Positions 3,040 through 64,000 of a stretch of DNA of 64,000 nucleotides are shown piece after piece. The DNA lies in the NCBI GenBank assembly GCA_041661005.1, contig JBAZVG010000001.1:403307-467306 (forward strand). The letters run 5' to 3'. This DNA is from Minisyncoccota bacterium. Lineage in GTDB: Bacteria; Patescibacteriota; Minisyncoccia; Phycocordibacterales; UBA9973. How positions within the stretch are numbered: position 1 is the first letter of the stretch; each line of letters begins with the position of its first letter. Below the pieces are notes generated by a model. It ran no database searches, had not been told where the DNA came from, and worked only from the letters and a program-made list of their open reading frames with translations. Position numbers and translations under genes: made by a program.

Positions 3040-3705
3040 ATCAGGGAGTGAGTTTGCGTGCACGCACGGGTGGGTGGAGTTTTTGTGTAATCACAAAAAC
3101 TCTGGGGCAAGCACGATGGCATTTGCGCCTTCGGGAATTTCCGCTAGGGTGTCTGGGCTAAAGACGAGCGCCTGAGCAATATGAAATACTAAAATCTCAT
3201 AGCGAAAGCGACATACTAAACATGGATATGAAAAACCTGAGAGGGGTTTGTGCGGTCGGGTGGGGTGAGCCCTGTTCCGCTTTGCGGAATGCGACCGCAG
3301 GGAGCACGAACCGAGACAACGCACTGGGGAGAGGAGAATCCTCTCCCCAACTAGAAGCGGGCTTTTTCTTGAACGGCTCATTTACCAGTATTTGAGCCGT
3401 TCGAAAAAGTCCCGCTACCTAGAACTGGCGCTCGTAGCCCTAGCGGAAATTCCCGAGGCGGATGCCGAGGGTGTATTCCTTTAGACTGGACACAATGATA
3501 TGATGGACGAAGGCACCGAGCATTTGTATTTGGATTTCTCCTGCGGGCAGAATTCAGAATCTCGTCAAAAGAACATTAGTCGAGGAAAAGCGGAATCCTA
3601 ATCCCTAAAATATTTGTTCCGCTTTTCCGAGTCCATTGAATTAGCACATTAGTAGAGCGTGGTAATTAGTTTAAAGTTAAGAGGCGCGCGTAGCGTGCAC
3701 ATTAG
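3040..3705. repeat. GC-rich (about 50% GC) noncoding island of nested inverted repeats and palindromes
   Basis: Outer GCGTGCACGC-containing inverted ends at 3048..3071 and 3680..3705. A 19+8-bp long-range inverted repeat at 3133..3170 and 3428..3460. A roughly 70-bp palindrome at 3352..3422. A GGGGAGAGG/CCTCTCCCC hairpin at 3311..3333. No credible ORF: 3091..3381(-) is Arg/Cys/Ser-rich junk. Confidence 0.5.
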
Positions 3706-5033: not shown

Positions 5034-5738
5034 TTATAATGCAGATTTCTCTGCTGATTTAGTATTTAATGCCTCTTTTTGTGTTTTTAAATAATCTTTT
5101 AATTGCGGGATAATCTTTTCAATCTCTTCTGTAGTTTTGAAACCGGGATAATTTTTTCCATCAATCACCATAACAGGCACATTTGCCGGTATCTTGTATA
5201 TAGAGATCAAAGCTTTTATGGCTGATAGATCCAAATTGTAATCAAAAGAATAAATGCGTAATTGCGGATACTTTTCACGCAATAGAGATAAGACATATTC
5301 TTGTTTTACACAATCAGTGCAAGTGGGGTCTGGAGAATACATATAGAGAATAAAAGAATTTTCAGAACCACAACGTTCATTTATCTTTTTCATTAAAAGA
5401 TAATCCTTAATCTCCAGCAAAGAATAATATTTCTTCAGATACTTGATGTCCGTATTGTCAGTAGCAAAATTTTTTTCACTATAATTTATCTTGTCGGCAA
5501 TATTATTTATTTCTTGAGACAGCACGGAATTATCAACGTTCTTGCAAGACAATTCCTGCAAAAGAGAAAACTGTGTTTCAGAAGAAAGAATGTCGATAGA
5601 AATATTGTCTTGAATGCTCTTTAATTGATTGATCTTATTATTATAAAAATAATTGGTAACATAAAAAGCGCTAGCAAACAAAGTAGCTGTTATGAAAAAA
5701 ACTATAATATATTTCCTCCAATCGTTTTGCGGTATCAT
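5034..5738 (-). CDS. Membrane-anchored thioredoxin-fold protein (CxxC)
   Basis: N-terminal TM helix. CTDC motif in a Trx-like context (LYMYSPDPTCTDCVKQEY...VPVMVIDGK). Confidence 0.4.
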   Translation of the reverse strand: MIPQNDWRKYIIVFFITATLFASAFYVTNYFYNNKINQLKSIQDNISIDILSSETQFSLLQELSCKNVDNSVLSQEINNIADKINYSEKNFATDNTDIKYLKKYYSLLEIKDYLLMKKINERCGSENSFILYMYSPDPTCTDCVKQEYVLSLLREKYPQLRIYSFDYNLDLSAIKALISIYKIPANVPVMVIDGKNYPGFKTTEEIEKIIPQLKDYLKTQKEALNTKSAEKSAL

Positions 5739-5747
5739 TTTTAAAAA

Positions 5748-6992
5748 TTAACGCCAGCTGGGCCTTTCTGAAACTATAACATTATACACAGCTTTCAAGA
5801 ACCAGATGGGTGCTATAACACTATAAGTCAACATATAAAAAACAATGTAAAAACTTGGCTGAAAACGATTTTCGGCTATTTTCCGACCGACCAAAATGGA
5901 AAAAAAGACCAGAGCGTAACACACTACAAGGATCAACGATATGCCTTTGATATTGAAATAAAACCAATCAAATTTTGGAAACTGTAGTATCTCGCTAAAA
6001 CCAACCACTTGAATTTCTATAACCTTTTCAATAATAAAATTTCCAAATTTAAACATTAAAACTACAAACAAAAAAATGATGCTAAAAATAGAAATTACTC
6101 CCGATGGCAGAGTGAGTAGAGACAAAGCTCCCAACTTCGGTTTTAACAATAAATGCCTGTAATCAATCAGATTTTTAATAAACCCATAATACCAGCGTAA
6201 TCGCTGTTTATATAATTTATACAGCGAATCCGGCGGAACAGTGTAAACATAGGCATCATGACAATAATCTATGCGTAAATTGTGTTGATGCATACGTAAT
6301 GCAATCTCTCCATCTTCTGTATTGTGTGCCTTCCTGAACCCCCCTAGCCTGTCAAAAACTTCCCGTCTGTAAATAGGCAAGGTGCCTGGTGTGACATTCA
6401 GTCCGTTTAAAAGACCCAGCACTTTCTTTACAAAAATAGATCCGAGATATTCAATCTTTTGGATCTTTTGAGCGAAGTTTTTTGGATTATGAATTATTGT
6501 CGCTGGGATAACCGCCATGACATCTTTATTGTCCAAAAAACATTGCATCATCCTACTCAACGCTTGTGGATGGACAAAAGAATCAGCGTCAAGACAAGCA
6601 ACAAATTCCGTTTTTACATGTTGGAGGCCTAGATTTATTGCAGTATGTTTCCCACCATTTTCTTTATGAAAAATTGAAATATTGGGATACTTCTCAAAAC
6701 GTTTCATTATACTCCATGTATTGTCAATTGACCCATCATCAACCAGAAAAATCTTCAGCTTTTCTTTTGGATAATCAATACCGAGTAAAGAACGTACAGT
6801 TTTATAAATTGTTTTATCTTCATTCCAACAAGACACAATGACGGTTACTGTAGGATAGTGACTCAACTTAATCTTCCCATTTCTGATAGTTATCTTTTTT
6901 CTATTTTCCAAAAAGGTCACGAAGAAAAACACCTGCACATACACGGACAGAAAAATTAATACATAAAATATTATGTTGGAAATTGAAACCAT
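5748..6992 (-). CDS. Processive family-2 glycosyltransferase (chitin/cellulose/hyaluronan-synthase-like)
   Basis: GT2 motifs: VTVIVSCWNE, LVDDGSIDNT, CLDADS, QRLRWYYG (QxxRW). Multiple C-terminal TM helices. Confidence 0.7.
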   Translation of the reverse strand: MVSISNIIFYVLIFLSVYVQVFFFVTFLENRKKITIRNGKIKLSHYPTVTVIVSCWNEDKTIYKTVRSLLGIDYPKEKLKIFLVDDGSIDNTWSIMKRFEKYPNISIFHKENGGKHTAINLGLQHVKTEFVACLDADSFVHPQALSRMMQCFLDNKDVMAVIPATIIHNPKNFAQKIQKIEYLGSIFVKKVLGLLNGLNVTPGTLPIYRREVFDRLGGFRKAHNTEDGEIALRMHQHNLRIDYCHDAYVYTVPPDSLYKLYKQRLRWYYGFIKNLIDYRHLLLKPKLGALSLLTLPSGVISIFSIIFLFVVLMFKFGNFIIEKVIEIQVVGFSEILQFPKFDWFYFNIKGISLILVVCYALVFFSILVGRKIAENRFQPSFYIVFYMLTYSVIAPIWFLKAVYNVIVSERPSWR

Positions 6993-7009
6993 ATTACTTC
7001 GACAAAGAA

Positions 7010-7300
7010 TTACATGCCAACTTCCGCCTTGTTGTCAGTATCGCAAGCACCACAAGCAGCCATGCATTTTTTGCACTTGCAACCAAAAATCTTCATAACA
7101 GCCGCAATACCGACTAATATGTAGACGATTGCTTCAATAGTTGGAACAGATCCGAGAACCATCTTCACAACATTCCAATCACCATTCATCAACATCCCCA
7201 CACCCACCAAACCCCAGTTGATGCCTCCTATGATCAATAGGATTTTGCCAATCAAGGCTGGAGTGCAACAACCCTTACAACAACTCATTCCATGACACAT
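7010..7300 (-). CDS. DUF378-family small membrane protein with Cys-rich termini
   Basis: GGINWGLVGVGML core of DUF378. N-terminal MCHGMSCCKGCC and C-terminal CKCKKCMAACGACD Cys clusters. Confidence 0.5.
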   Translation of the reverse strand: MCHGMSCCKGCCTPALIGKILLIIGGINWGLVGVGMLMNGDWNVVKMVLGSVPTIEAIVYILVGIAAVMKIFGCKCKKCMAACGACDTDNKAEVGM

Positions 7301-8681: not shown

Positions 8682-8760
8682 TTGATACAAAACTAATGAA
8701 AGTAGTTTTTTTATCTTACATTAAGAACTACCTTTAAATTACCTTGACTGAAACAAAAAA

Positions 8761-8792
8761 ACCATAATAGACACGACCGTGTCTATTATGGT
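8761..8792. promoter_or_regulatory. 32-bp palindrome ACCATAATAGACACG-AC-CGTGTCTATTATGGT, 13 nt upstream of the PaaX-like gene start
   Basis: Perfect 15-bp arms. TATTAT inside the right arm is a possible -10. A near-identical copy lies 3' of the same gene at 9391..9422. Confidence 0.55.
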
Positions 8793-8804
8793 AACATATA
8801 AAAT

Positions 8805-9365
8805 ATGCGCTTAATTGATCAAGAGTCTAATTCAGGCAAAATAATCCGCGCGCTTGGTATCGGGATAGGGATATCCGTGGCACTAGGAAATAGGAGAACA
8901 AGCTATAAAATGACAAAAACATTAATTAAAGAAATTTTTGGTTTAAATAAACAACCCAAAAATTATTCTAGATATTTTTCTAAACTGAGAAAACAAAAGT
9001 TTGTATGTATTAAGAAAATTGACAGTGATCACATTGTGTCTCTCACAGAAAAAGGCAGAGAAGTTTTTTTAAGATTTAATTACGAAAACTTGGAAATAAA
9101 AAGAAGTAAAATATGGGATAGGAACTTTCGCATGGTTGTCTTTGATATTCCAGAAATAAAAAGAAATGCCAGAGATTCACTTCGAGATAAACTGAAAGAA
9201 ATGGGTTTGGTAAAATTCAACGATAGTGTTTGGATATATCCGTTCCCCTGCCAGCAAGAAATTGATTTTATTGCCAATTATTGGAATATAGGAAAATATG
9301 TGCATTTTGCTTTAGTTAAAAATATAACCAATAGAGATTACTTAGAAAGGTATTTTAATTTATAG
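8805..9365 (+). CDS. PaaX-like transcriptional regulator, short form (paralog 1)
   Basis: Winged-helix region (KQKFVCIKKIDSDHIVSLTEKGREVF) followed by a PaaX middle-domain-like block. IWDRNFRMVVFDIPE...LVKFNDSVWIYPFPC compares with E. coli PaaX AWDGKWLLLLSEGL...GFGALAPSLMASP. Confidence 0.5.
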   Translation: MRLIDQESNSGKIIRALGIGIGISVALGNRRTSYKMTKTLIKEIFGLNKQPKNYSRYFSKLRKQKFVCIKKIDSDHIVSLTEKGREVFLRFNYENLEIKRSKIWDRNFRMVVFDIPEIKRNARDSLRDKLKEMGLVKFNDSVWIYPFPCQQEIDFIANYWNIGKYVHFALVKNITNRDYLERYFNL

Positions 9366-9390
9366 ATATTTTTTCTTATATTTCATAAAT

Positions 9391-9422
9391 ACCACAATAA
9401 CCACGGCCGTGTCTATTGTGGT
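9391..9422. promoter_or_regulatory. Second copy of the paralog-1 palindrome, ACCACAATAACCACGG-CCGTGTCTATTGTGGT, 26 nt past the stop
   Basis: About 27/32 identical to the 8761..8792 site, itself an imperfect palindrome. It sits between convergent genes. Confidence 0.5.
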
Positions 9423-9452
9423 ATTAGTTTAACACCGCTAACATACTCCCTA

Positions 9453-24342: not shown

Positions 24343-26487
24343 GTGAAAAACCAAATGAATAAAAAAGAGGGCCTCGCCCGTAGGCCTATGGCCGAGGGCA
24401 TTATATCCATTACCTCCAAAGGCACTGGATATGTTGCCATTGGGGACGCAAAAAACAAACAAGACCCAGAAATTGATTCCAAGTATTTGAATACTGCCCT
24501 GCATGGAGATCTAGTCGAAATTACCCTGCATCCAAAAGGTAAAGCAAGACAGACAGCTGAAGTTTCAAAAATAATCACCCGCGCGAAAATGCGTTTTGCT
24601 GGAGTTTTAGAATTAGACCCCACCAAGAACGGGGCAAGAAACAATATATTTTTCTTGAAACCAGATGATACAAAAATGTACACGGATATTCTAATACCCG
24701 AGGGAGAATTAAACGGAGCAAAGGCGGGACAAAAAGTCTTTGTGGAAATAACTTCTTGGACAGATGCAAGCAAAGCTCCTGTCGGAAAAGTAATCAAAAT
24801 TTTAGGAAATCCGGGAGATAATGACACAGAAATGCATTCTATCGCAATGGAAAAAGGATTCGATTCAGAATTACCCCAAGAAGTAGAGAACGAGGCCAGA
24901 GAAATAAAAATACGCGGTATAAAAGAAAGTGATTACGCATCGCGTCGCGATTTCAGAAAAACTTTAACTTTCACCATTGACCCCTCAGATGCAAAAGATT
25001 TCGATGATGCAATTTCGTTTCGAGTTATTAATTCCCCTCTTGAGGGGTGGCCGAAGGACGGGGTGGAAAATGCATCCACCTCCCTCCGACAAAAGTCGGA
25101 GTACTCCTCAAGAGGAGAATTGTACGAAATAGGCATACATATAGCAGACGTATCGCATTATGTAAAAATAGGCAGTGCTTTGGATGTCGAAGCGCGAGAA
25201 CGAGGAACTTCGGTTTATTTAGTGGATAGGACAATACCGATGTTGCCCGAGACATTATCAAATGATCTATGTAGCCTGGTACCCAATAAAGACAGACTCA
25301 CCATGAGCGCAGTTTTTATTATGGACAAAAATGCCAAAGTAAAAAATGAATGGTATGGCGCTACCATTATACATTCTCAAAAAAGATTTACTTATGAAGA
25401 AGCCGAGGAATCCCTCGGCCATAGCCCTACGGGCGAGGCAATCAAAAAACTGAATGCTCCCCTGCATAAAGAATTGTCTATTTTAAATGATCTGGCAAAA
25501 AAATTAACAAAAGAAAGATTTGATAACGGCGCCATATCGCTTGATCAGGAAGAAGTAAAATTTGTATTAGATAAGAATGGAACACCGATAAAAGTAATCA
25601 CAAAAGAGCGCGGAGATTCTAATAGATTAATTGAGGAATTCATGCTTCTTGCCAACAAAAGAGTGGCGAAGATTTTATCTCCCCAATCTTCCCGCAGTCA
25701 CCTATCTGGGAAAGAAGAAAATAATAATATTTCTATATACCGCGTGCATGATCTACCAAGCAAGGAAAAGATGGCAGATCTGGCATTTTTTCTGCGAAGT
25801 TTGGGACATAAAATATCTTTAGTAAACGGAGTCATACCCAGTCATGAAATAAATAATCTTCTAAAAAAATTAGAAGGAAAGAATGAGGAAAACACAGTGA
25901 ATCGCGCGGTGATACGCTCCATGGCAAAAGCGATTTATTCAACCAAAAACATCGGGCACTACGGACTCGCTTTTGAGCATTACACGCACTTCACTTCCCC
26001 GATCAGACGATACCCGGATATCATAGTGCACAGATTACTTGCCAATTTTCTTGCCGGTAAAAAAGTCGGCAAAGAAAAATTGCTTGAATATGAAAAAATC
26101 GCCAGAATTTCATCTGAACAGGAAAAACGCGCTTCCGATGCTGAACGAGCTTCCATCAAATATAAACAAGTTGAGTATATGTCGAAGCGTCTAGGAGAAA
26201 ATTTCGAGGGAATCATAAGTGGAATTACAGAGTGGGGCATTTATGTAGAAGAAACAGAAACGAAATGCGAAGGACTAGTGCGAATACGTGACATGAGCGA
26301 TGATTTTTATGTTTTTAATGAAAAGAAAATAGAATTAGTTGGACAAGGGAAGAAGTCCCGACGCCCTTCGGGGTCGGGATCCCGATCGCAAGCATCGGGA
26401 AAAAAATATCGACTAGGCGATCGTGTTAAGATAAAAGTAAAAGGAACTGATCTGGAGAAAAAAACAATAGACTACGTTTTATTATAG
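24343..26487 (+). CDS. rnr: Ribonuclease R (RNB family, VacB)
   Basis: RNB catalytic motif IGIHIADVSHYV and a C-terminal S1 domain. Carries a roughly 92-bp in-frame repeat-element insertion at 25029..25120. Confidence 0.85.
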   Translation: MKNQMNKKEGLARRPMAEGIISITSKGTGYVAIGDAKNKQDPEIDSKYLNTALHGDLVEITLHPKGKARQTAEVSKIITRAKMRFAGVLELDPTKNGARNNIFFLKPDDTKMYTDILIPEGELNGAKAGQKVFVEITSWTDASKAPVGKVIKILGNPGDNDTEMHSIAMEKGFDSELPQEVENEAREIKIRGIKESDYASRRDFRKTLTFTIDPSDAKDFDDAISFRVINSPLEGWPKDGVENASTSLRQKSEYSSRGELYEIGIHIADVSHYVKIGSALDVEARERGTSVYLVDRTIPMLPETLSNDLCSLVPNKDRLTMSAVFIMDKNAKVKNEWYGATIIHSQKRFTYEEAEESLGHSPTGEAIKKLNAPLHKELSILNDLAKKLTKERFDNGAISLDQEEVKFVLDKNGTPIKVITKERGDSNRLIEEFMLLANKRVAKILSPQSSRSHLSGKEENNNISIYRVHDLPSKEKMADLAFFLRSLGHKISLVNGVIPSHEINNLLKKLEGKNEENTVNRAVIRSMAKAIYSTKNIGHYGLAFEHYTHFTSPIRRYPDIIVHRLLANFLAGKKVGKEKLLEYEKIARISSEQEKRASDAERASIKYKQVEYMSKRLGENFEGIISGITEWGIYVEETETKCEGLVRIRDMSDDFYVFNEKKIELVGQGKKSRRPSGSGSRSQASGKKYRLGDRVKIKVKGTDLEKKTIDYVLL
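25029..25120 (+). repeat. GC-rich multi-hairpin mosaic element, copy A (in-frame within rnr)
   Basis: ATTCCCCTCTTGAGGGGTGG...GACGGGGTGGAAAATGCATCCACCTCCCTCCGACAAAAGTCGGAGTACTCCTCAAGAGGAGAAT. Five successive hairpins. Homologous copies at 56870, 63309(-) and 63812. Confidence 0.75.
26357..26400 (+). repeat. Two adjacent GC-rich hairpins inside the rnr C-terminal tail
   Basis: CCCGACGCCC-TTCG-GGGTCGGG and TCCCGAT-N8-ATCGGGA. They encode SRRPSGSGSRSQASG. Confidence 0.35.
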
Positions 26488-40674: not shown

Positions 40675-41829
40675 ATGGCGAAATATGACATAACAAGTCC
40701 CGAAGAAGCAGCTTTAAGGAAAGATCTAGAACCAAAGACCGATGCACATTCTATGCGTTTGAAGCGTTATCTTTCTATGCCGGATCTTTCCCGTACTCCC
40801 GGAAGTCCTTTGGAAGAGATAGTAAGAAAAGCCAAGGAAGTGTCTTCGCTTAAAAATTTCGATGAAATAAAAATACCAGAAATCGTGCCAACAAAAATTC
40901 TTTTTGATTTATTTAATATGCCCGAGGGTCATCCAGCTCGCAGTCCTTCAGACACTTATTATGTTGATGAAAATAATGTTTTAAGAACACATGATACAGT
41001 ATTTTGGTATTACTATCTAAACCTCCCTGAAATAAAAAAAAGGATTGCCAACAAAGAAACTCTCGGGGCTATATGTTATGGCAAAGTGTATCGTAAAGAT
41101 GAAATTGATGCCCGTCACATGAATGTTTTCCATCAATTTGGTGGATGGCTAATAGCACCGGACGACCTGCCTCGACTAGGCAAGGCGGGCAAAGAAACAC
41201 TCACTCCTGAAGATTTAAAAAAAGCTTTAACAGAGATAGCAACAAGTATTTTCGGTAAAATAAACTTTCGTTTTTATGACCACAACTTTCCTTATACTGA
41301 TCCAAGCTTTGAGATGGAAGCAGAGATTAACGGCAAATGGATTGAAATGTTGGGCTCTGGAATGGTAAGAAAAACTGTTCTATCTAATCTAGGGCTCGAA
41401 GGCTACCATGGATGGGCTTTTGGATTCGGTCTAGAACGCCTCGCCATAGCGAGCATGCAACTCCCAGATATCCGACTTTTATGGTCAGAAGACGGAAGAG
41501 TTAAGAAACAACTCAAACTTGGACAAAAATTTGTTGAAGTTAGTAAATATCCTCCGATTGTGCGAGATATTTCTTTTATTGTAAAAAACGACTTCGTGCC
41601 AAATGATTATTTTGATTTCGTGAGAGAATTAGCCCCCGGTATAGTGGAACAAGTAGAACTTTTAGACAAATATGAAAATATAGAAAAATTCGGCGCTGGA
41701 AAAGTTAGTTATGCTTATAGAATCATTTATCGATCGATAGAGAGAACTCTAATTTCAGAAGAGATTGATAAAATTCATAAAAAATTAGAAACTGAGACTA
41801 CAAAAAACTTCAACGCAACAATACGTTAA
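40675..41829 (+). CDS. pheS: Phenylalanyl-tRNA synthetase alpha-type catalytic core with fused C-terminal FDX-ACB anticodon-binding domain (single-chain)
   Basis: Class II motifs (FRFYDHNFPYTDP, GWAFGFGLERLAIA). C-terminal KYPPIVRDISFIV...KVSYAYRIIYRS is an FDX-ACB-type domain. No pheT adjacent. Confidence 0.7.
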   Translation: MAKYDITSPEEAALRKDLEPKTDAHSMRLKRYLSMPDLSRTPGSPLEEIVRKAKEVSSLKNFDEIKIPEIVPTKILFDLFNMPEGHPARSPSDTYYVDENNVLRTHDTVFWYYYLNLPEIKKRIANKETLGAICYGKVYRKDEIDARHMNVFHQFGGWLIAPDDLPRLGKAGKETLTPEDLKKALTEIATSIFGKINFRFYDHNFPYTDPSFEMEAEINGKWIEMLGSGMVRKTVLSNLGLEGYHGWAFGFGLERLAIASMQLPDIRLLWSEDGRVKKQLKLGQKFVEVSKYPPIVRDISFIVKNDFVPNDYFDFVRELAPGIVEQVELLDKYENIEKFGAGKVSYAYRIIYRSIERTLISEEIDKIHKKLETETTKNFNATIR

Positions 41830-52861: not shown

Positions 52862-53734
52862 CTAAAAATTAAAAAGATTTAATTCAAAAATAAATGCCAA
52901 AAATGTTCCTAGAACCAAAAATGGAGCAAATGGAATTTCGCTTTTCATCCCCATACTGTTTATTCTACCATTTTTTGCCAGCCTCGCCGAGTCTAGGCGG
53001 GCCAGCCTCGCCGAGTCTAGGCGGGAAAGAACTACAAGCGTCACCCCGACGACAGCTCCAGACCAGAAAGCCATCACCAAACCAGATAGAGCAACAGAAA
53101 TACCGAGCAACCATCCGATGCCTAGAGAGAGCTTTGCATCCCCCAGCCCCATCCACCTGCCACGAGATATAAACCAAAAGAAAGCAAACGGGAATGCTAT
53201 GAACACACCAGAAAGAAATTCCCAAACAGTCGGGATTTGAAAATATAAAACGATAGGATTGGAAGAATCTAAAAAATTATTATGGAAAAAAAATAAACCC
53301 AGAAATGCCAGAACGCCGAAAATAAGAGAAAGCATGTCCGGAATTATTTTATGTTTCAGATCATAAGTCGCTATGACCACAAGCAGTGAAAACGCAGTTG
53401 CATAGTAAACATAAATGATGCCGAAAGATTGAATGTCTGCCAGAAAAATATCCTGGAATTTCAAAAACAGCAAAGCGAAAACGAGGCCTGTTGTAAATTC
53501 AACCAAAGGATATTGCATGGAAATTTTGGTTTTACAATTCCGGCACCTCCCCCCGAGCCATAGAAAGCTAACGACAGGTATGAGATCATACCAATGGAGT
53601 TTATTTTGGCAAGACATGCAGGCGCTCCGCCCGCCGAGAGATCTTTTTGTGTTGAGTCGATAAATTACAACATTCAAAAAACTGCCAATAGTGAGACCGA
53701 GAACAAAGAAAAAAAACCCAAGTAATAAAATCAT
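52862..53734 (-). CDS. pilD: Prepilin peptidase (A24 family)
   Basis: N-terminal Cys4 (CMSCQNK...CRNCKTK) and conserved catalytic Asp regions (DLKHKIIPD, GLGDAKL). Contains a 24-bp x2 in-frame tandem repeat. Confidence 0.85.
   Translation of the reverse strand: MILLLGFFFFVLGLTIGSFLNVVIYRLNTKRSLGGRSACMSCQNKLHWYDLIPVVSFLWLGGRCRNCKTKISMQYPLVEFTTGLVFALLFLKFQDIFLADIQSFGIIYVYYATAFSLLVVIATYDLKHKIIPDMLSLIFGVLAFLGLFFFHNNFLDSSNPIVLYFQIPTVWEFLSGVFIAFPFAFFWFISRGRWMGLGDAKLSLGIGWLLGISVALSGLVMAFWSGAVVGVTLVVLSRLDSARLARLDSARLAKNGRINSMGMKSEIPFAPFLVLGTFLAFIFELNLFNF
52977..53024. repeat. Perfect 24-bp tandem duplication (GCCAGCCTCGCCGAGTCTAGGCGG x2) in-frame within pilD
   Basis: GC-rich. Encodes LARLDSAR twice near the PilD C-terminus. 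Confidence 0.7.
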
Positions 53735-56704: not shown

Positions 56705-56869
56705 AATTAAATTCTAAACTAAATTAATAATAATTAATAATGCAATTTCGACTCCCGCCTGCTCCCATAGGGCGGACAGGTATTTTTAATACAACTATTA
56801 TAACATTATGCAAAAACATTTATGCAACCAAGTTATCCACACCCCTTCGCCAAGGCTACGGAGGTGCAG

Positions 56870-57033
56870 GCAGGGTAGTGATTCCCCTCTTGAGGGGTGG
56901 CTCGCTTACGAGACGGGGTGGAAGAATTCCCTCACCCCTTGCTTTCCCCTCTCCATTCAAAAGAATGGAGAGGGGTTGGGGAGAGGGTATCCACCTCCCT
57001 CCGACCTAGGTCGGAATACTCCTCAAGAGGAGA
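56870..57033 (+). repeat. GC-rich multi-hairpin mosaic element, copy B (expanded, intergenic pilA/pilC)
   Basis: ATTCCCCTCTTGAGGGGTGG-CTCGCTTACGAG-ACGGGGTGGA, an extra CCCCTCTCC...GGAGAGGGG module, then TCCACCTCCCTCCGACCTAGGTCGGAATACTCCTCAAGAGGAGAAT. Confidence 0.75.
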
Positions 57034-57042
57034 ATTAAAATT

Positions 57043-62604: not shown

Positions 62605-63246
62605 TTAGCTTTCTTGCGTTAAGATCGTTTGCTTATAATCAACAAAAGATGGATCGACTGAAAATTCTAAATCAAAAAGGACATTACCCTTGTCATCCAG
62701 AGTAAGATTGGAAAAAACAGGATCGATAAAATTCTTACCTTCGTCCTTGGTGGTAAAAAGATCGGATTGTAGAGCCACCGAACGATAGCCGACTGCAGTG
62801 CCACTCATTTTAATAAGAACCTTGGAATTTTTTGTGTCTTTTTCATTCCCGCCTTGACTCGACGAGTCAGGTCCAAAACTATAACTAAATCTAGTGTAAC
62901 GAACAGTCTTCATAGTAATGGCAGAAAGCGCCTCAAAAATAGGAGTTATCGCAATATGTTTGGACAAGATTTCAGTTGACGCCCGCAAGCGCCTGTCTAA
63001 AACCTGAAGCTCGGTTATCTTGGAAGGCTCGAAACGATTTCTGGCTAAAGTTAAATCATTTTCCATTTTGACAATGTCTTTCGCTAAAATACCTTTATAG
63101 AAAAAAAGTCCACCGGTCGCGAGCAACACAGAAAACAAAATAAAAAAAGAAATAACCGTAAAAAAACCAATAGATCGCGTCGTAACGACACGCTCTACCA
63201 CCATCGGTTTTTTAGGGATAAATGATGTTTGGAAATTCGGCTCCAT
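62605..63246 (-). CDS. pilN: PilN-like pilus assembly protein
   Basis: N-terminal basic segment and TM helix (IGFFTVISFFILFSVLL) followed by a coiled coil. Confidence 0.5.
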   Translation of the reverse strand: MEPNFQTSFIPKKPMVVERVVTTRSIGFFTVISFFILFSVLLATGGLFFYKGILAKDIVKMENDLTLARNRFEPSKITELQVLDRRLRASTEILSKHIAITPIFEALSAITMKTVRYTRFSYSFGPDSSSQGGNEKDTKNSKVLIKMSGTAVGYRSVALQSDLFTTKDEGKNFIDPVFSNLTLDDKGNVLFDLEFSVDPSFVDYKQTILTQES

Positions 63247-63308
63247 ACTACACTACTATTATATTATAAAAACAAATTATAATGAAGTAAAATGTGTATA
63301 ACTCAACA

Positions 63309-63419
63309 TCCACCCCGCATTCATTCTCCTCTTGAGGAGTACTCCGACCTAGGTCGGAGGGAGGTGGAAATGCATCCACCCCGTCTCGGATTACCGAGCC
63401 ACCCCTCAAGAGGGGAATT
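63309..63419 (-). repeat. GC-rich multi-hairpin mosaic element, copy C (minus orientation)
   Basis: The reverse complement reads ATTCCCCTCTTGAGGGGTGG-CTCGGTAATCCGAG-ACGGGGTGGATGCATTTCCACCTCCCTCCGACCTAGGTCGGAGTACTCCTCAAGAGGAGAATGAATGCGGGGTGGATG. It supplies the last codons and the TGA stop of the DUF559 gene. Confidence 0.75.
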
Positions 63420-63876
63420 TTAAGACACCTTTCCTTTTGTATATTGTTTCTAATACAAATTGATAAACACTAGCCAAATTTTTCTTAACTTCTATATCAA
63501 GTATCCGAACTACTTCTAAATTTAGATCTTTCATGAAAGCATCTCTTTCTGCATCATACTCCATTTTATTATCGTGGCTTGAACCATCTATTTCAAATAC
63601 CAATCCCAGTTCGGGAACAAAAAAGTCCACTATATAATTACCTATTACAACTTGTCGATCTATATCAAAGCCTAATTTATTTTTATCCTTGAATGTTTGC
63701 CAAAACAAAACTTCTGACAAATTGCCCGATTTTCTTAAATCTCTTGCTCTGTCCGTTAAAAGTTTGTTTTTTGGAATTTCCCAATAGGGATACAAGGACT
63801 TTGGATCCCATAATTCCCCTCTTGAGGGGTGGACTTTGTAATCAAAGGACGGGGTGGATGAATTCTTCTTGGGCAT
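63406..63876 (-). CDS. DUF559 (Vsr-like endonuclease fold) protein
   Basis: LRKSGNLSEVLFWQ...DRQVVIGNYIVDFFVPELGLVFEIDGSSHD...AERDAFMKDLNLEVVRI DUF559 pattern. Both ends overlap repeat-element copies. Confidence 0.6.
   Translation of the reverse strand: MPKKNSSTPSFDYKVHPSRGELWDPKSLYPYWEIPKNKLLTDRARDLRKSGNLSEVLFWQTFKDKNKLGFDIDRQVVIGNYIVDFFVPELGLVFEIDGSSHDNKMEYDAERDAFMKDLNLEVVRILDIEVKKNLASVYQFVLETIYKRKGVLKFPS
63812..63866 (+). repeat. GC-rich multi-hairpin mosaic element, copy D (partial left half)
   Basis: ATTCCCCTCTTGAGGGGTGG-ACTTTGTAATCAAAG-GACGGGGTGGATGAATTC. Lies inside the annotated 5' end of the DUF559 ORF. Confidence 0.7.
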
Positions 63877-64000
63877 TTAGTTATTTTGGCTTAGTCAGTA
63901 ACTACACCAAATCTATTTGTGTGAAATTAATTAAAGTTAGAGAGAAAAACAAAAATATAATAGAAAAAAGGTTTTAGAAATGTAATCAATAGTAGTAGAG

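Follow-up and report, generated by a model that had tools for sequence, protein, structure and literature searches.

Inverted structured repeats flank a predicted DUF559 nuclease gene in the pilus operon of a Minisyncoccota bacterium and accompany related genes across bacterial phyla

INTRODUCTION

Why does a gene for a nuclease-like protein lie between inverted copies of a short structured repeat in a pilus operon? The question is raised by 64,000 nucleotides (nt) of DNA from a Minisyncoccota bacterium (GenBank assembly GCA_041661005.1, contig JBAZVG010000001.1, positions 403,307 to 467,306), here called the window, in which a DUF559 gene sits directly 5' of a pilN-like gene. DUF559 is a very large protein family whose function is unknown. 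An earlier note on this DNA, made from the sequence alone, had proposed either that a repeat element had brought an endonuclease cassette into the pilus operon or that the element had reshaped the ends of a gene. We find that the gene and its flanking repeat units form a cassette that occupies different sites in related genomes, and that the pairing of DUF559 genes with such units recurs in more than 10 bacterial phyla.

RESULTS

The DUF559 gene and its flanking repeat units

The gene is an open reading frame (ORF) on the minus strand (63406..63876) that encodes a protein of 156 aa. Pfam DUF559 (PF04480) matched residues 40-144 with E=1.8e-22 (79.7 bits, cut-off 20.6), and a sequence match to a DUF559 structure, PDB 3hrl, was found with E=9e-9. 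An AlphaFold2 (AF2) model of the protein had a predicted local distance difference test score (pLDDT) of 79, with residues 1-23 below 50. Foldseek aligned this model with 3hrl (E=2e-5, TMt 0.85), with the catalytic domain from homing endonuclease I-Bth0305I (3r3p; E=5e-4, TMt 0.70) and, weakly, with Vsr (1vsr and 1cw0). Residues E55, D84, E95, D97, H101 and D108 were invariant in an alignment of 28 homologs. In order they resemble the E-D-H-D catalytic residues known from Vsr and I-Bth0305I (Taylor et al. 2011, PMC3239194), and their mapping to Vsr E25/D51/H69/D97 follows motif order, not superposition. Vsr, DUF559 and I-Bth0305I have been placed in one PD-(D/E)xK clade (Steczkiewicz et al., PMC3424549), and profile and fold together predict that the protein is a DUF559/Vsr-like (EDxHD-like) nuclease. 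With the NCBIfam YcjD model the protein scored 51 bits, short of the equivalog cut-off (218), and we therefore regard it as a homolog and not an ortholog of YcjD. The identity of the cassette as a defence system was rejected on PADLOC matches that were only weak, and a scan at Rfam gathering thresholds returned one tRNA and no intron. Among viral contigs only distant DUF559 relatives (36-46% identity) were detected, and no phage vector was found.

Both ends of the gene are built from repeat units. Unit D (63812..63858, plus strand; AATT CCCCTC TT GAGGGG TG-GACTTTGTAATCAAAGG-AC GGGGTG GA; two hairpins, -7.5 kcal/mol) lies inside the 5' coding region, where its minus-strand reading is STPSFDYKVHPSRGEL. 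The 3' unit, of the CCCCTC subtype (63375..63419, minus strand; -10.1 kcal/mol, z=-2.9), is the inner half of copy C (63323-63419). The outer half, which unit alignment places in the CTCCTC/GAGGAG/GAGGTG subtype (63323..63368, plus strand), is joined to it tail-to-tail by the linker 63369-63374 (AATGCA), and the dimer folds into a four-way fold-back of -30.5 kcal/mol (z=-6.0). As the earlier note had described, the gene is bracketed by inward-facing inverted copies, the CCCCTC 'head' ends of both flanking units pointing toward it. The note had taken copy D for a truncated element; it is one complete unit, and in copies A, B and C two such units are joined tail-to-tail as a dimer. At the outer insertion edge lies an orphan unit tail, CATCCACCCCG (63307..63317, plus strand), the remnant of a further unit that is found identically at two other loci (L083 and L115).

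A palindrome-like 14-mer, CCCCTCTTGAGGGG, marks the element copies and occurs 4 times in the window, where 0 occurrences would be expected, at 25034 (+), 56884 (+), 63402 (-) and 63816 (+). The two copies far from the gene are also on the plus strand: copy A (25030..25121; -28.1 kcal/mol, z=-7.1), which is in frame in an RNase R gene and encodes NSPLEGWPKDGVENASTSLRQKSEYSSRGEL, and copy B (56880..57036), identified by unit alignment between pilC and a pilin gene. Copies A, B and C are dimers of 92-157 nt with inverted unit arms. The linker of copy B holds a nested TMECO-like triplex motif (56946-56986), CCCCTCTCC-N12-GGAGAGGGG-TT-GGGGAGAGG, with 9-nt stems and 9/9 mirror triads.

The flanking units encode residues 7-22 of the protein and its last 3 codons and stop; the note had already assigned the last codons, the stop and part of the N-terminal extension (HPSRGEL) to the element. 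In copy C, the loop of CCCCTCTTGAGGGG contains the TGA stop (63406-63408), so that the first hairpin loop of the 3' unit supplies the codons F-P-S and the stop of the ORF end ...KFPS*. The conserved core spans residues 23-148, and conservation with DUF559 proteins of other phyla begins at W23, right after the unit, not at RARDLRKSG, where the note had let the core begin. Homologs are numerous (n=763), many of them 70-88% identical across the full 156 aa. In nearly all of the 28 that were aligned, the N-terminal STPS-xxxxx-HPSRGE and the C-terminal FPS* are kept, which bears out the idea that the elements reshape the ends of the gene. The peptide of unit D is thus retained among them with a variable middle, which varies where the unit hairpin varies, and some carry 2-3 units in tandem. 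The start codon (63874-63876) lies outside unit D and is the sole in-frame start codon, upstream of the unit; among homologs, synonymous changes are seen in the codons just past the unit (ttg, ctt, cta or tta for Leu28). Together these observations suggest that the N-terminal tail is truly translated. The low pLDDT of residues 1-23 suggests that this unit-encoded N-terminus is a disordered tail.

Structure of the repeat unit

Alignment of the copies gave a basic unit of about 47 nt: AATT - CCCCTC - TT - GAGGGG - TG - (variable hairpin) - (A)C - GGGGTG - GA. The pyrimidine block CCCCTC and its complement GAGGGG form hairpin 1; after them come a hairpin of free sequence and a third block, GGGGTG, which mirrors the purine block instead of complementing it and has T or A opposite A. 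This mirror relation is followed through the variants of the stem. In addition to GAGGGG with GGGGTG, the purine blocks GGAGGGG, GAAGGGG and AGAGGGG are accompanied by the third blocks GGGGTGG, GGGGTAG and GGGGTGT, respectively, and the second unit type of the window combines GAGGAG with GAGGTG. An intrastrand purine-motif triplex is recognised by a mirror repeat that follows a hairpin, and the unit would adopt such a layout, as in E. coli BoxC/TMECO.

The middle hairpin (loop 2) is conserved in fold and not in sequence. We counted 179 distinct sequences in 284 copies from all collected loci, and nearly all of them fold as a hairpin, with a mean minimum free energy of -4.7 kcal/mol versus -1.6 kcal/mol in shuffles; values <=-3 kcal/mol were reached by 65% versus 18%. 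The G:T pairs in these variable hairpins show no strand asymmetry (39/1349 versus 61/1441), which we argue places the constraint at the DNA level rather than at the RNA level, and no T-run was found after the unit hairpins. As single strands, units fold into two hairpins and dimers into a four-way fold-back of -28 to -30 kcal/mol (z=-6 to -7). Every dimer of the window (A, B and C) combines one CCCCTC-type with one CTCCTC-type unit.

Linkage of DUF559 genes and repeat units across phyla

In the window alone, the chance that two of the four element loci fall within 600 nt is about 0.11, so the significance of the bracketing rests on its replication across genomes. We compared 80 DUF559 loci from many phyla, picked by similarity to the window protein. 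The exact unit was present at 33 of the 36 closest loci and flanks DUF559 genes in Brocadiaceae, Fibrobacteria, Gracilibacteria, Ignavibacteria and others; sequence variants of it occurred at nearly all remaining loci. A general unit detector placed a unit <=300 nt from the DUF559 gene in 76 of the 80 loci, and the density of units near the gene was enriched 36-fold (199 in 78 kb versus 54 in 768 kb of flanks). The association that the note had seen at one locus is thus found with DUF559 genes elsewhere as well, and no gene family other than DUF559 recurs beside the units. An inverted pair of units surrounds the gene in 50 loci, with the heads outward in 40 (forward unit, gene, reverse unit) and inward in 10, all of them Paceibacteria.

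The subtype of the unit tracks the cluster of the DUF559 protein and not the phylum of the host. Subtype CCCCTC/GGGGTGGA is shared by Paceibacteria, Gracilibacteria, Brocadiaceae, Fibrobacteria and Ignavibacteria, and CCCCTCC/GGGGTGGT by Bacteroidota, Desulfobulbaceae, Spirochaetota, Gammaproteobacteria, Kapaibacteria and two lineages of the candidate phyla radiation (CPR); CCCCTTC/GGGGTAGT occurs in Betaproteobacteria and CCCCTCT/GGGGTGTT in a mixed group. Joint transfer and evolution of gene and units would be expected to leave such a pattern.

Insertion of the cassette in the pilus operon

Downstream of the DUF559 gene and on the same strand lie pilN-, pilO-, pilP- and pilB-like genes, identified by synteny and by Pfam matches to PilO and T2SSE, which agrees with the position directly 5' of pilN that the note had given for the cassette. 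The pilN-like gene (62605..63246, minus strand) was assigned by synteny. It is preceded by a block (63247..63306, minus strand) that runs from AGTTATACACA (63293-63303) to TTGTTTTTATAATATAAT and contains a promoter-like match (63291-63263). A block of this form, AGTTATRCACA...TTGTTTTTGTAATATAAT, precedes pilN in every allele of the relatives, filled or empty; it is therefore native, lies outside the cassette and marks the right boundary of the insertion. The insertion is always between the pilM stop and this block. On the other side, the AT-rich sequence 5' of the DUF559 start (63877..64000, minus strand) holds a weak promoter-like match and no unit, pilM or ORF end. The note had placed the cassette where pilM would be expected; no pilM is indeed visible in these last nucleotides, but pilM has not been replaced, since it lies just upstream in relatives that carry the cassette. 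By synteny, the pilM of the source genome should lie just past the end of the window.

AGTTATACACA, which heads the conserved block 5' of pilN in all relatives, resembles a DnaA box (TTATNCACA), as does a similar 11-mer on the plus strand, AGTTATCCACA (56831-56841), 40 nt from dimer B.

With PilN as query, a scan of metagenomes returned 80 loci, in 74 of which both pilM and pilN were visible. The two genes are adjacent in 62 of the 74; the DUF559 cassette separates them in 2 (L083 and L151) and other inserts in 10. Several states of this junction were observed: empty (L084-L086), a solo unit (L082, with a PilN 85% identical to that of the window), a gene-less head-to-head pair of units (L107), the full cassette (L083, L151), and an internal-deletion derivative with start codon, 5' unit, the last codons ELELFPS* and 3' unit (L101). 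On a neighbour-joining tree of PilN the cassette-bearing loci are scattered among empty ones, which indicates repeated gain or loss at the junction. The cassette is thus an insertion between pilM and pilN, as the first of the note's two proposals had it.

The pilM-pilN junction is one of at least four different sites that the cassette occupies in syntenic Paceibacteria, where we compared 18 loci from species-representative genomes whose neighbouring genes are up to 94% identical to those of the window. It lies upstream of pilN in the window, L005, L010, L012 and L115 (in the last at a contig edge), between pilB and a response regulator (RR) gene of the same operon in L004 and L015, and between an rpoD-like gene and its neighbour in L001, L003, L006 and L007; further sites exist among the 18 loci. 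A site filled in one genome is empty in another. In L004 and L015 pilN directly follows pilM and the pilB-RR junction is filled, and the latter is empty in the window, L005 and L012. In L010 the cassette adjoins pilM, and in L005, L012 and L083 one or two extra unit-bounded ORFs intervene. At the pilN locus, relatives with the DUF559 gene always carry its flanking units.

Arrays of several cassettes were also noted. Unit-bounded ORFs at L083 3692-4343, L005 5436-5936, L004 5652-5921, L015 5718-5993 and L006 5636-5995 sit between pilM or pilB and the DUF559 gene. Their cargo includes a 166-aa protein common to L083 and L005, a 45-aa basic CxxC peptide in L083, a SemiSWEET-like protein in L015 and small membrane proteins; Pfam searches with these ORFs were uninformative except for the SemiSWEET-like protein.

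Repeat units inside reading frames

The units are open in the reading frames that are used (the window nuclease and hsdS), and in this way they became the first and last codons of the nuclease. Copy A lengthens the RNase R gene (ORF 24343-26487) by 31 codons, between DDAISF and YEIGIHIADV. At this position 7 of 20 close homologs carry nothing and one (P0123) carries a dimer of like kind; the position is a hotspot at which other homologs carry different GC-rich inserts. One such insert, ..SPTPLH..NGEGRRG.. in P0124, P0144 and P0148, is probably related to the nested motif of copy B.

Residence in frame extends to whole cassettes. In the hsdS genes of 4 Brocadiaceae/Planctomycetota genomes both units and the DUF559 domain are in frame within one ORF of about 590 aa. 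These inserts (L019, L021, L023 and L025, at about 5300-7150) occupy the central conserved region, between EWFVDFRFP and LGPIPKGW, and the target-recognition domains differ among the 4 insert-bearing genes.

The E. coli gene ycjD and BoxC

E. coli has been known since the 1990s to carry BoxC/PIT/TMECO repeats, for which both triplex formation and the marking of unstable loci have been shown. To our knowledge, they lack an assigned function, origin and mobility enzyme. The NCBIfam match pointed us to E. coli YcjD. In K-12, the loop of an imperfect hairpin, CCCTCTCCC-TGAAA-GAGCGAGGG, contains the TGA stop of ycjD, downstream of the gene comes a second, partial copy of its 3' end (L081 11170-11840), and one of the 23 BoxC/TMECO copies is 167 nt downstream of ycjD. 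The supplement of Holder et al. 2015 lists this copy between fabI and ycjD, without comment (PMC4666352).

The gene is accessory, being present in 3378 of 5426 complete E. coli genomes, and the segment ycjD-spacer-BoxC is found in 3377. In a sample of 60 evenly spaced genomes, the 37 with ycjD had 11-25 BoxC-like places (median 18) and the 23 without it 1-14 (median 3; Mann-Whitney p=1.6e-10), a correlation that we regard as suggestive, as it is confounded by phylogroup. It is reported that ycjD marks phylogroups A, B1 and C and that the eef operon fills the site elsewhere (PMC12817139). Strain SE15 was tried as a clean empty site and rejected, an eef efflux island filling its fabI-sapF interval.

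DISCUSSION

Explanations of the linkage

With modest confidence, we favour the explanation that the cassette is a selfish mobile element that couples a Vsr-like nuclease gene to cognate structured repeats, the nuclease acting on the units and the whole spreading in a manner like that of repetitive extragenic palindromes (REP) with their RAYT enzymes or like homing. The nuclease would recognise and cut DNA at or in folded or paired units, be it a triplex, a hairpin or the four-way fold-back; an alternative target would be a G:T mismatch formed when heterotypic dimers fold back. Gene and units would then be copied or relocated through repair or recombination between copies of the unit, by homing-like gene conversion or by REP/RAYT-like mobilisation. 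In the lineage of the window, the cassette would have landed between pilM and pilN, just 5' of the native pilN promoter block. Solo units and dimers scattered elsewhere, such as copies A and B, some of them in frame in genes, would be its non-autonomous derivatives. Gene loss from an outward-facing cassette would be expected to leave the geometry of dimers A and B, and gene loss from an inward-facing one that of L101 and L107. Such a design is compatible with residence in frame in essential genes. The co-variation of protein cluster and unit subtype across phyla lends strength to the note's idea of a nuclease that acts on the elements. What the data show is the anatomy of the units with their structural covariation, the insertion polymorphism, the linkage and co-variation across phyla and the conservation of the presumed catalytic residues; cutting at the units and the mode of spread are what we infer.

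A wider form of this explanation, which we put forward tentatively as quite possible, is that DUF559 proteins are the missing enzyme partners of BoxC/PIT/triplex-motif repeats throughout Bacteria, YcjD and BoxC included. They would then define a new class of selfish element, in which a Vsr-like nuclease recognises the non-B DNA of its own flanking repeats and drives their spread.

Several observations weigh against a nuclease-driven selfish element. The 80 loci cover one DUF559 subfamily, and genomes in our sample usually hold one DUF559 copy. The unit heads point inward in Paceibacteria and outward in every other phylum. Comparison of filled and empty alleles at the pilM-pilN and pilB-RR junctions revealed no target-site duplication and no fixed terminus. 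Unrelated small ORFs are also bounded by units, so that units can enclose passengers. The triplex is read from mirror covariation, and 20 of 53 CCCCTTC units, with the purine block GAAGGGG, have the non-matching third block GGGGTGG. The protein is close to a bare catalytic domain with no obvious sequence-reading module. In E. coli, beside the confounding by phylogroup, O157-like strains without ycjD retain 12-13 BoxC copies.

Some of these points would be at home in the main rival explanation, which we consider rather unlikely. There, host machinery or another enzyme would spread or recombine the units as structured repeats, and DUF559 is a passenger or a 'guardian' nuclease for non-B DNA, analogous to a repair enzyme and not to a mobility enzyme; its linkage arises because arrays capture genes or because the linkage is favoured. 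The unit-bounded SemiSWEET-like, 166-aa and small membrane proteins, the two opposite orientations, the missing target-site duplications and fixed termini and the O157-like strains all fit with it, as does the report that TMECO sites are recombination-prone without a linked mobility gene (PMC4666352). Capture of passengers, however, leaves unexplained why 76 of 80 DUF559 loci in so many phyla are flanked, and why the unit subtype follows the DUF559 cluster and not the host. A guardian gene would have no need to move among sites together with its units, and no other gene family recurs beside them. The specificity of the linkage and the co-variation thus weaken this rival.

That the inverted units merely serve the gene as a device for expression or regulation (pairing of mRNA ends, terminator or stabiliser hairpins or an invertible switch), with no role in mobility, seems to us improbable. 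As such a device would have it, the two units of Paceibacteria are complementary and both contained in the transcript, but in other phyla they lie outside the ORF and in the opposite orientation. The G:T pairs argue for a constraint on DNA, the hairpins lack a following T-run, and solo units and dimers occur far from any DUF559 gene, including inside RNase R. Proteins annotated as 'DUF559 domain-containing protein' are enriched (odds ratio 14) among predicted targets of programmed inversion (PMC9881135), but this may reflect hsdS genes with in-frame DUF559 inserts, and we do not use the enrichment as support. Scarcely credible, finally, is ordinary synteny, in which a conserved host gene would lie by chance between two copies of an abundant intergenic repeat. 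The window taken alone would leave room for it, at a chance of about 11% for two of four element loci within 600 nt. It is already contradicted by the adjacency of pilM and pilN in 62 of 74 relatives, by the different sites of the cassette in syntenic genomes, by the series of junction states, by the flanked arrangement in 76 of 80 loci and by the conservation of the unit-derived ORF ends.

For the linkage of DUF559 genes and units we found no prior description in the literature on DUF559, ycjD, intrastrand triplexes, Vsr-like proteins with inverted repeats and the in-frame palindromes of Patescibacteria (subscription-only literature lay outside the search). The linkage, being specific, cross-phylum and co-evolving, offers a candidate explanation for each of two long-standing unknowns, the DUF559 family and the triplex-motif repeats. 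It can be tested directly in E. coli K-12, with its 23 BoxC copies and a ycjD that is non-essential and polymorphic. It also means that in small CPR genomes housekeeping genes hold in-frame insertions of repeats, for which annotation, protein-family alignments and assembly need to allow, and that a nuclease domain has been delivered in frame into hsdS.

Comparison with known systems

REP/REPIN sequences and their RAYT transposases, reportedly described by Nunvar in 2010, by Bertels and Rainey in 2011 and by Ton-Hoang in 2012, are similar in several ways. Inverted copies of a short structured repeat enclose one small enzyme gene, numerous further copies are spread through the genome singly or as doublets, the doublets fold back, enzyme clade and repeat type co-vary, and in the E. 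coli sample repeats are fewer where the gene is absent. The enzyme of the cassette differs, being a predicted Vsr-like PD-(D/E)xK nuclease and not an HUH/Y1 transposase of the IS200/IS605 type; the repeat has a three-block triplex layout with a free hairpin, and its units are often translated in frame inside genes.

The likeness to BoxC/PIT/TMECO lies in the order of a pyrimidine block, a complementary purine block and a mirror purine/T block, in the GC-rich copies, in inverted pairs that always join two subtypes, in the wide and patchy distribution, in the K-12 copy beside the DUF559 gene ycjD, and in the nested motif of copy B with its 9-nt stems and TMECO block order. The main unit does not fit the TMECO consensus, CCCTCNCCC-N3-6-GGGNGAGGG-N3-GGGNGAGGG, which has 9-nt stems and a 3-nt second loop. 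Its stems are of 6-7 nt, a hairpin of 10-25 nt stands in place of the second loop, and its ends, AATT... and ...TGGA, are conserved. Only the nested motif of copy B (loops N12 and TT) has 9-nt stems. An intrastrand triplex has been demonstrated in vitro, by circular dichroism and nuclear magnetic resonance, for TMECO only (Holder et al. 2015, PMC4666352). The same authors state that mobility functions were never found near TMECO sites (PMC4666352), and the cassette differs from BoxC in that the latter has no reported enzyme partner or mobility gene.

With EDxHD/Vsr-like homing endonucleases such as I-Bth0305I (PMC3239194) the nuclease shares the predicted catalytic fold and, as judged by motif order, resembles them in its set of acidic and histidine residues, and its gene is likewise present or absent at fixed sites among close relatives. 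Unlike theirs, it is bounded by structured repeats and does not lie in a unique target gene. The Rfam scan gave no intron and no intein motifs were seen; a NUMOD or helix-turn-helix (HTH) DNA-binding domain is likewise absent. The cassette occupies several unrelated intergenic sites or lies in frame in hsdS without splicing signatures.

Rickettsia palindromic elements (RPE), said to have been described as in-frame elements by Ogata et al. in 2000, and in-frame MITEs (miniature inverted-repeat transposable elements) resemble the units in being short palindromes in frame in essential genes, where they are tolerated as additional loops of the peptide and vary in presence among relatives, as in RNase R. 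Here, in contrast, a 'master' cassette that encodes an enzyme is visible, and whole cassettes including the nuclease domain can be in frame (Brocadiaceae hsdS). Units and dimers share with MITEs their shortness, inverted arms and lack of coding capacity when alone, and L101 is an internal-deletion derivative of the cassette; they differ in the absence of a target-site duplication between filled and empty alleles. Units flank genes on both sides, which sets them apart from integron attC sites; integron hallmarks (tyrosine integrase, attI) were not noticed in the loci that were read, although no search aimed at them was made. By analogy, the best-supported reading is that the cassette works like REP/RAYT or like a free-standing homing endonuclease gene and is a member of neither family, because its enzyme is not a Y1 transposase and it has no intron, intein or unique target gene.

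Other short repeats in the window

The window holds further short repeats. A second family of GC-rich palindromes of about 30 nt, GCCTCGCCCGTAGGCCTATGGCCGAGGG, is in frame in RNase R at 24371-24398 and 25412-25439, where it encodes GLARRPMAEG and LGHSPTGEA; each copy is independently present or absent in homologs (P0122, P0130, P0212). GCCAGCCTCGCCGAGTCTAGGCGG, a GC-rich short repeat in an AT-rich genome, forms an exact tandem pair at 52977-53024, with a 75% copy at 41165-41188. A 33-nt inverted repeat, AACGGCTCAAATACCAGTATCTGAGCCGTT, at 2641-2673 and 3369-3401 is 85% complementary, with arms that are themselves hairpins and about 700 nt between them, and may be another hairpin-bounded cassette. 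A near-identical pair of hairpins, ACCATAATAGACACG..CGTGTCTATTATGGT (8754-8793 and 9384-9423), brackets a plus-strand ORF (8805-9365) that matches the Cas2-like central domain of PaaX. This ORF lies in the interval between the rpoD-like gene and its neighbour in which L001, L003, L006 and L007 hold the DUF559 cassette.

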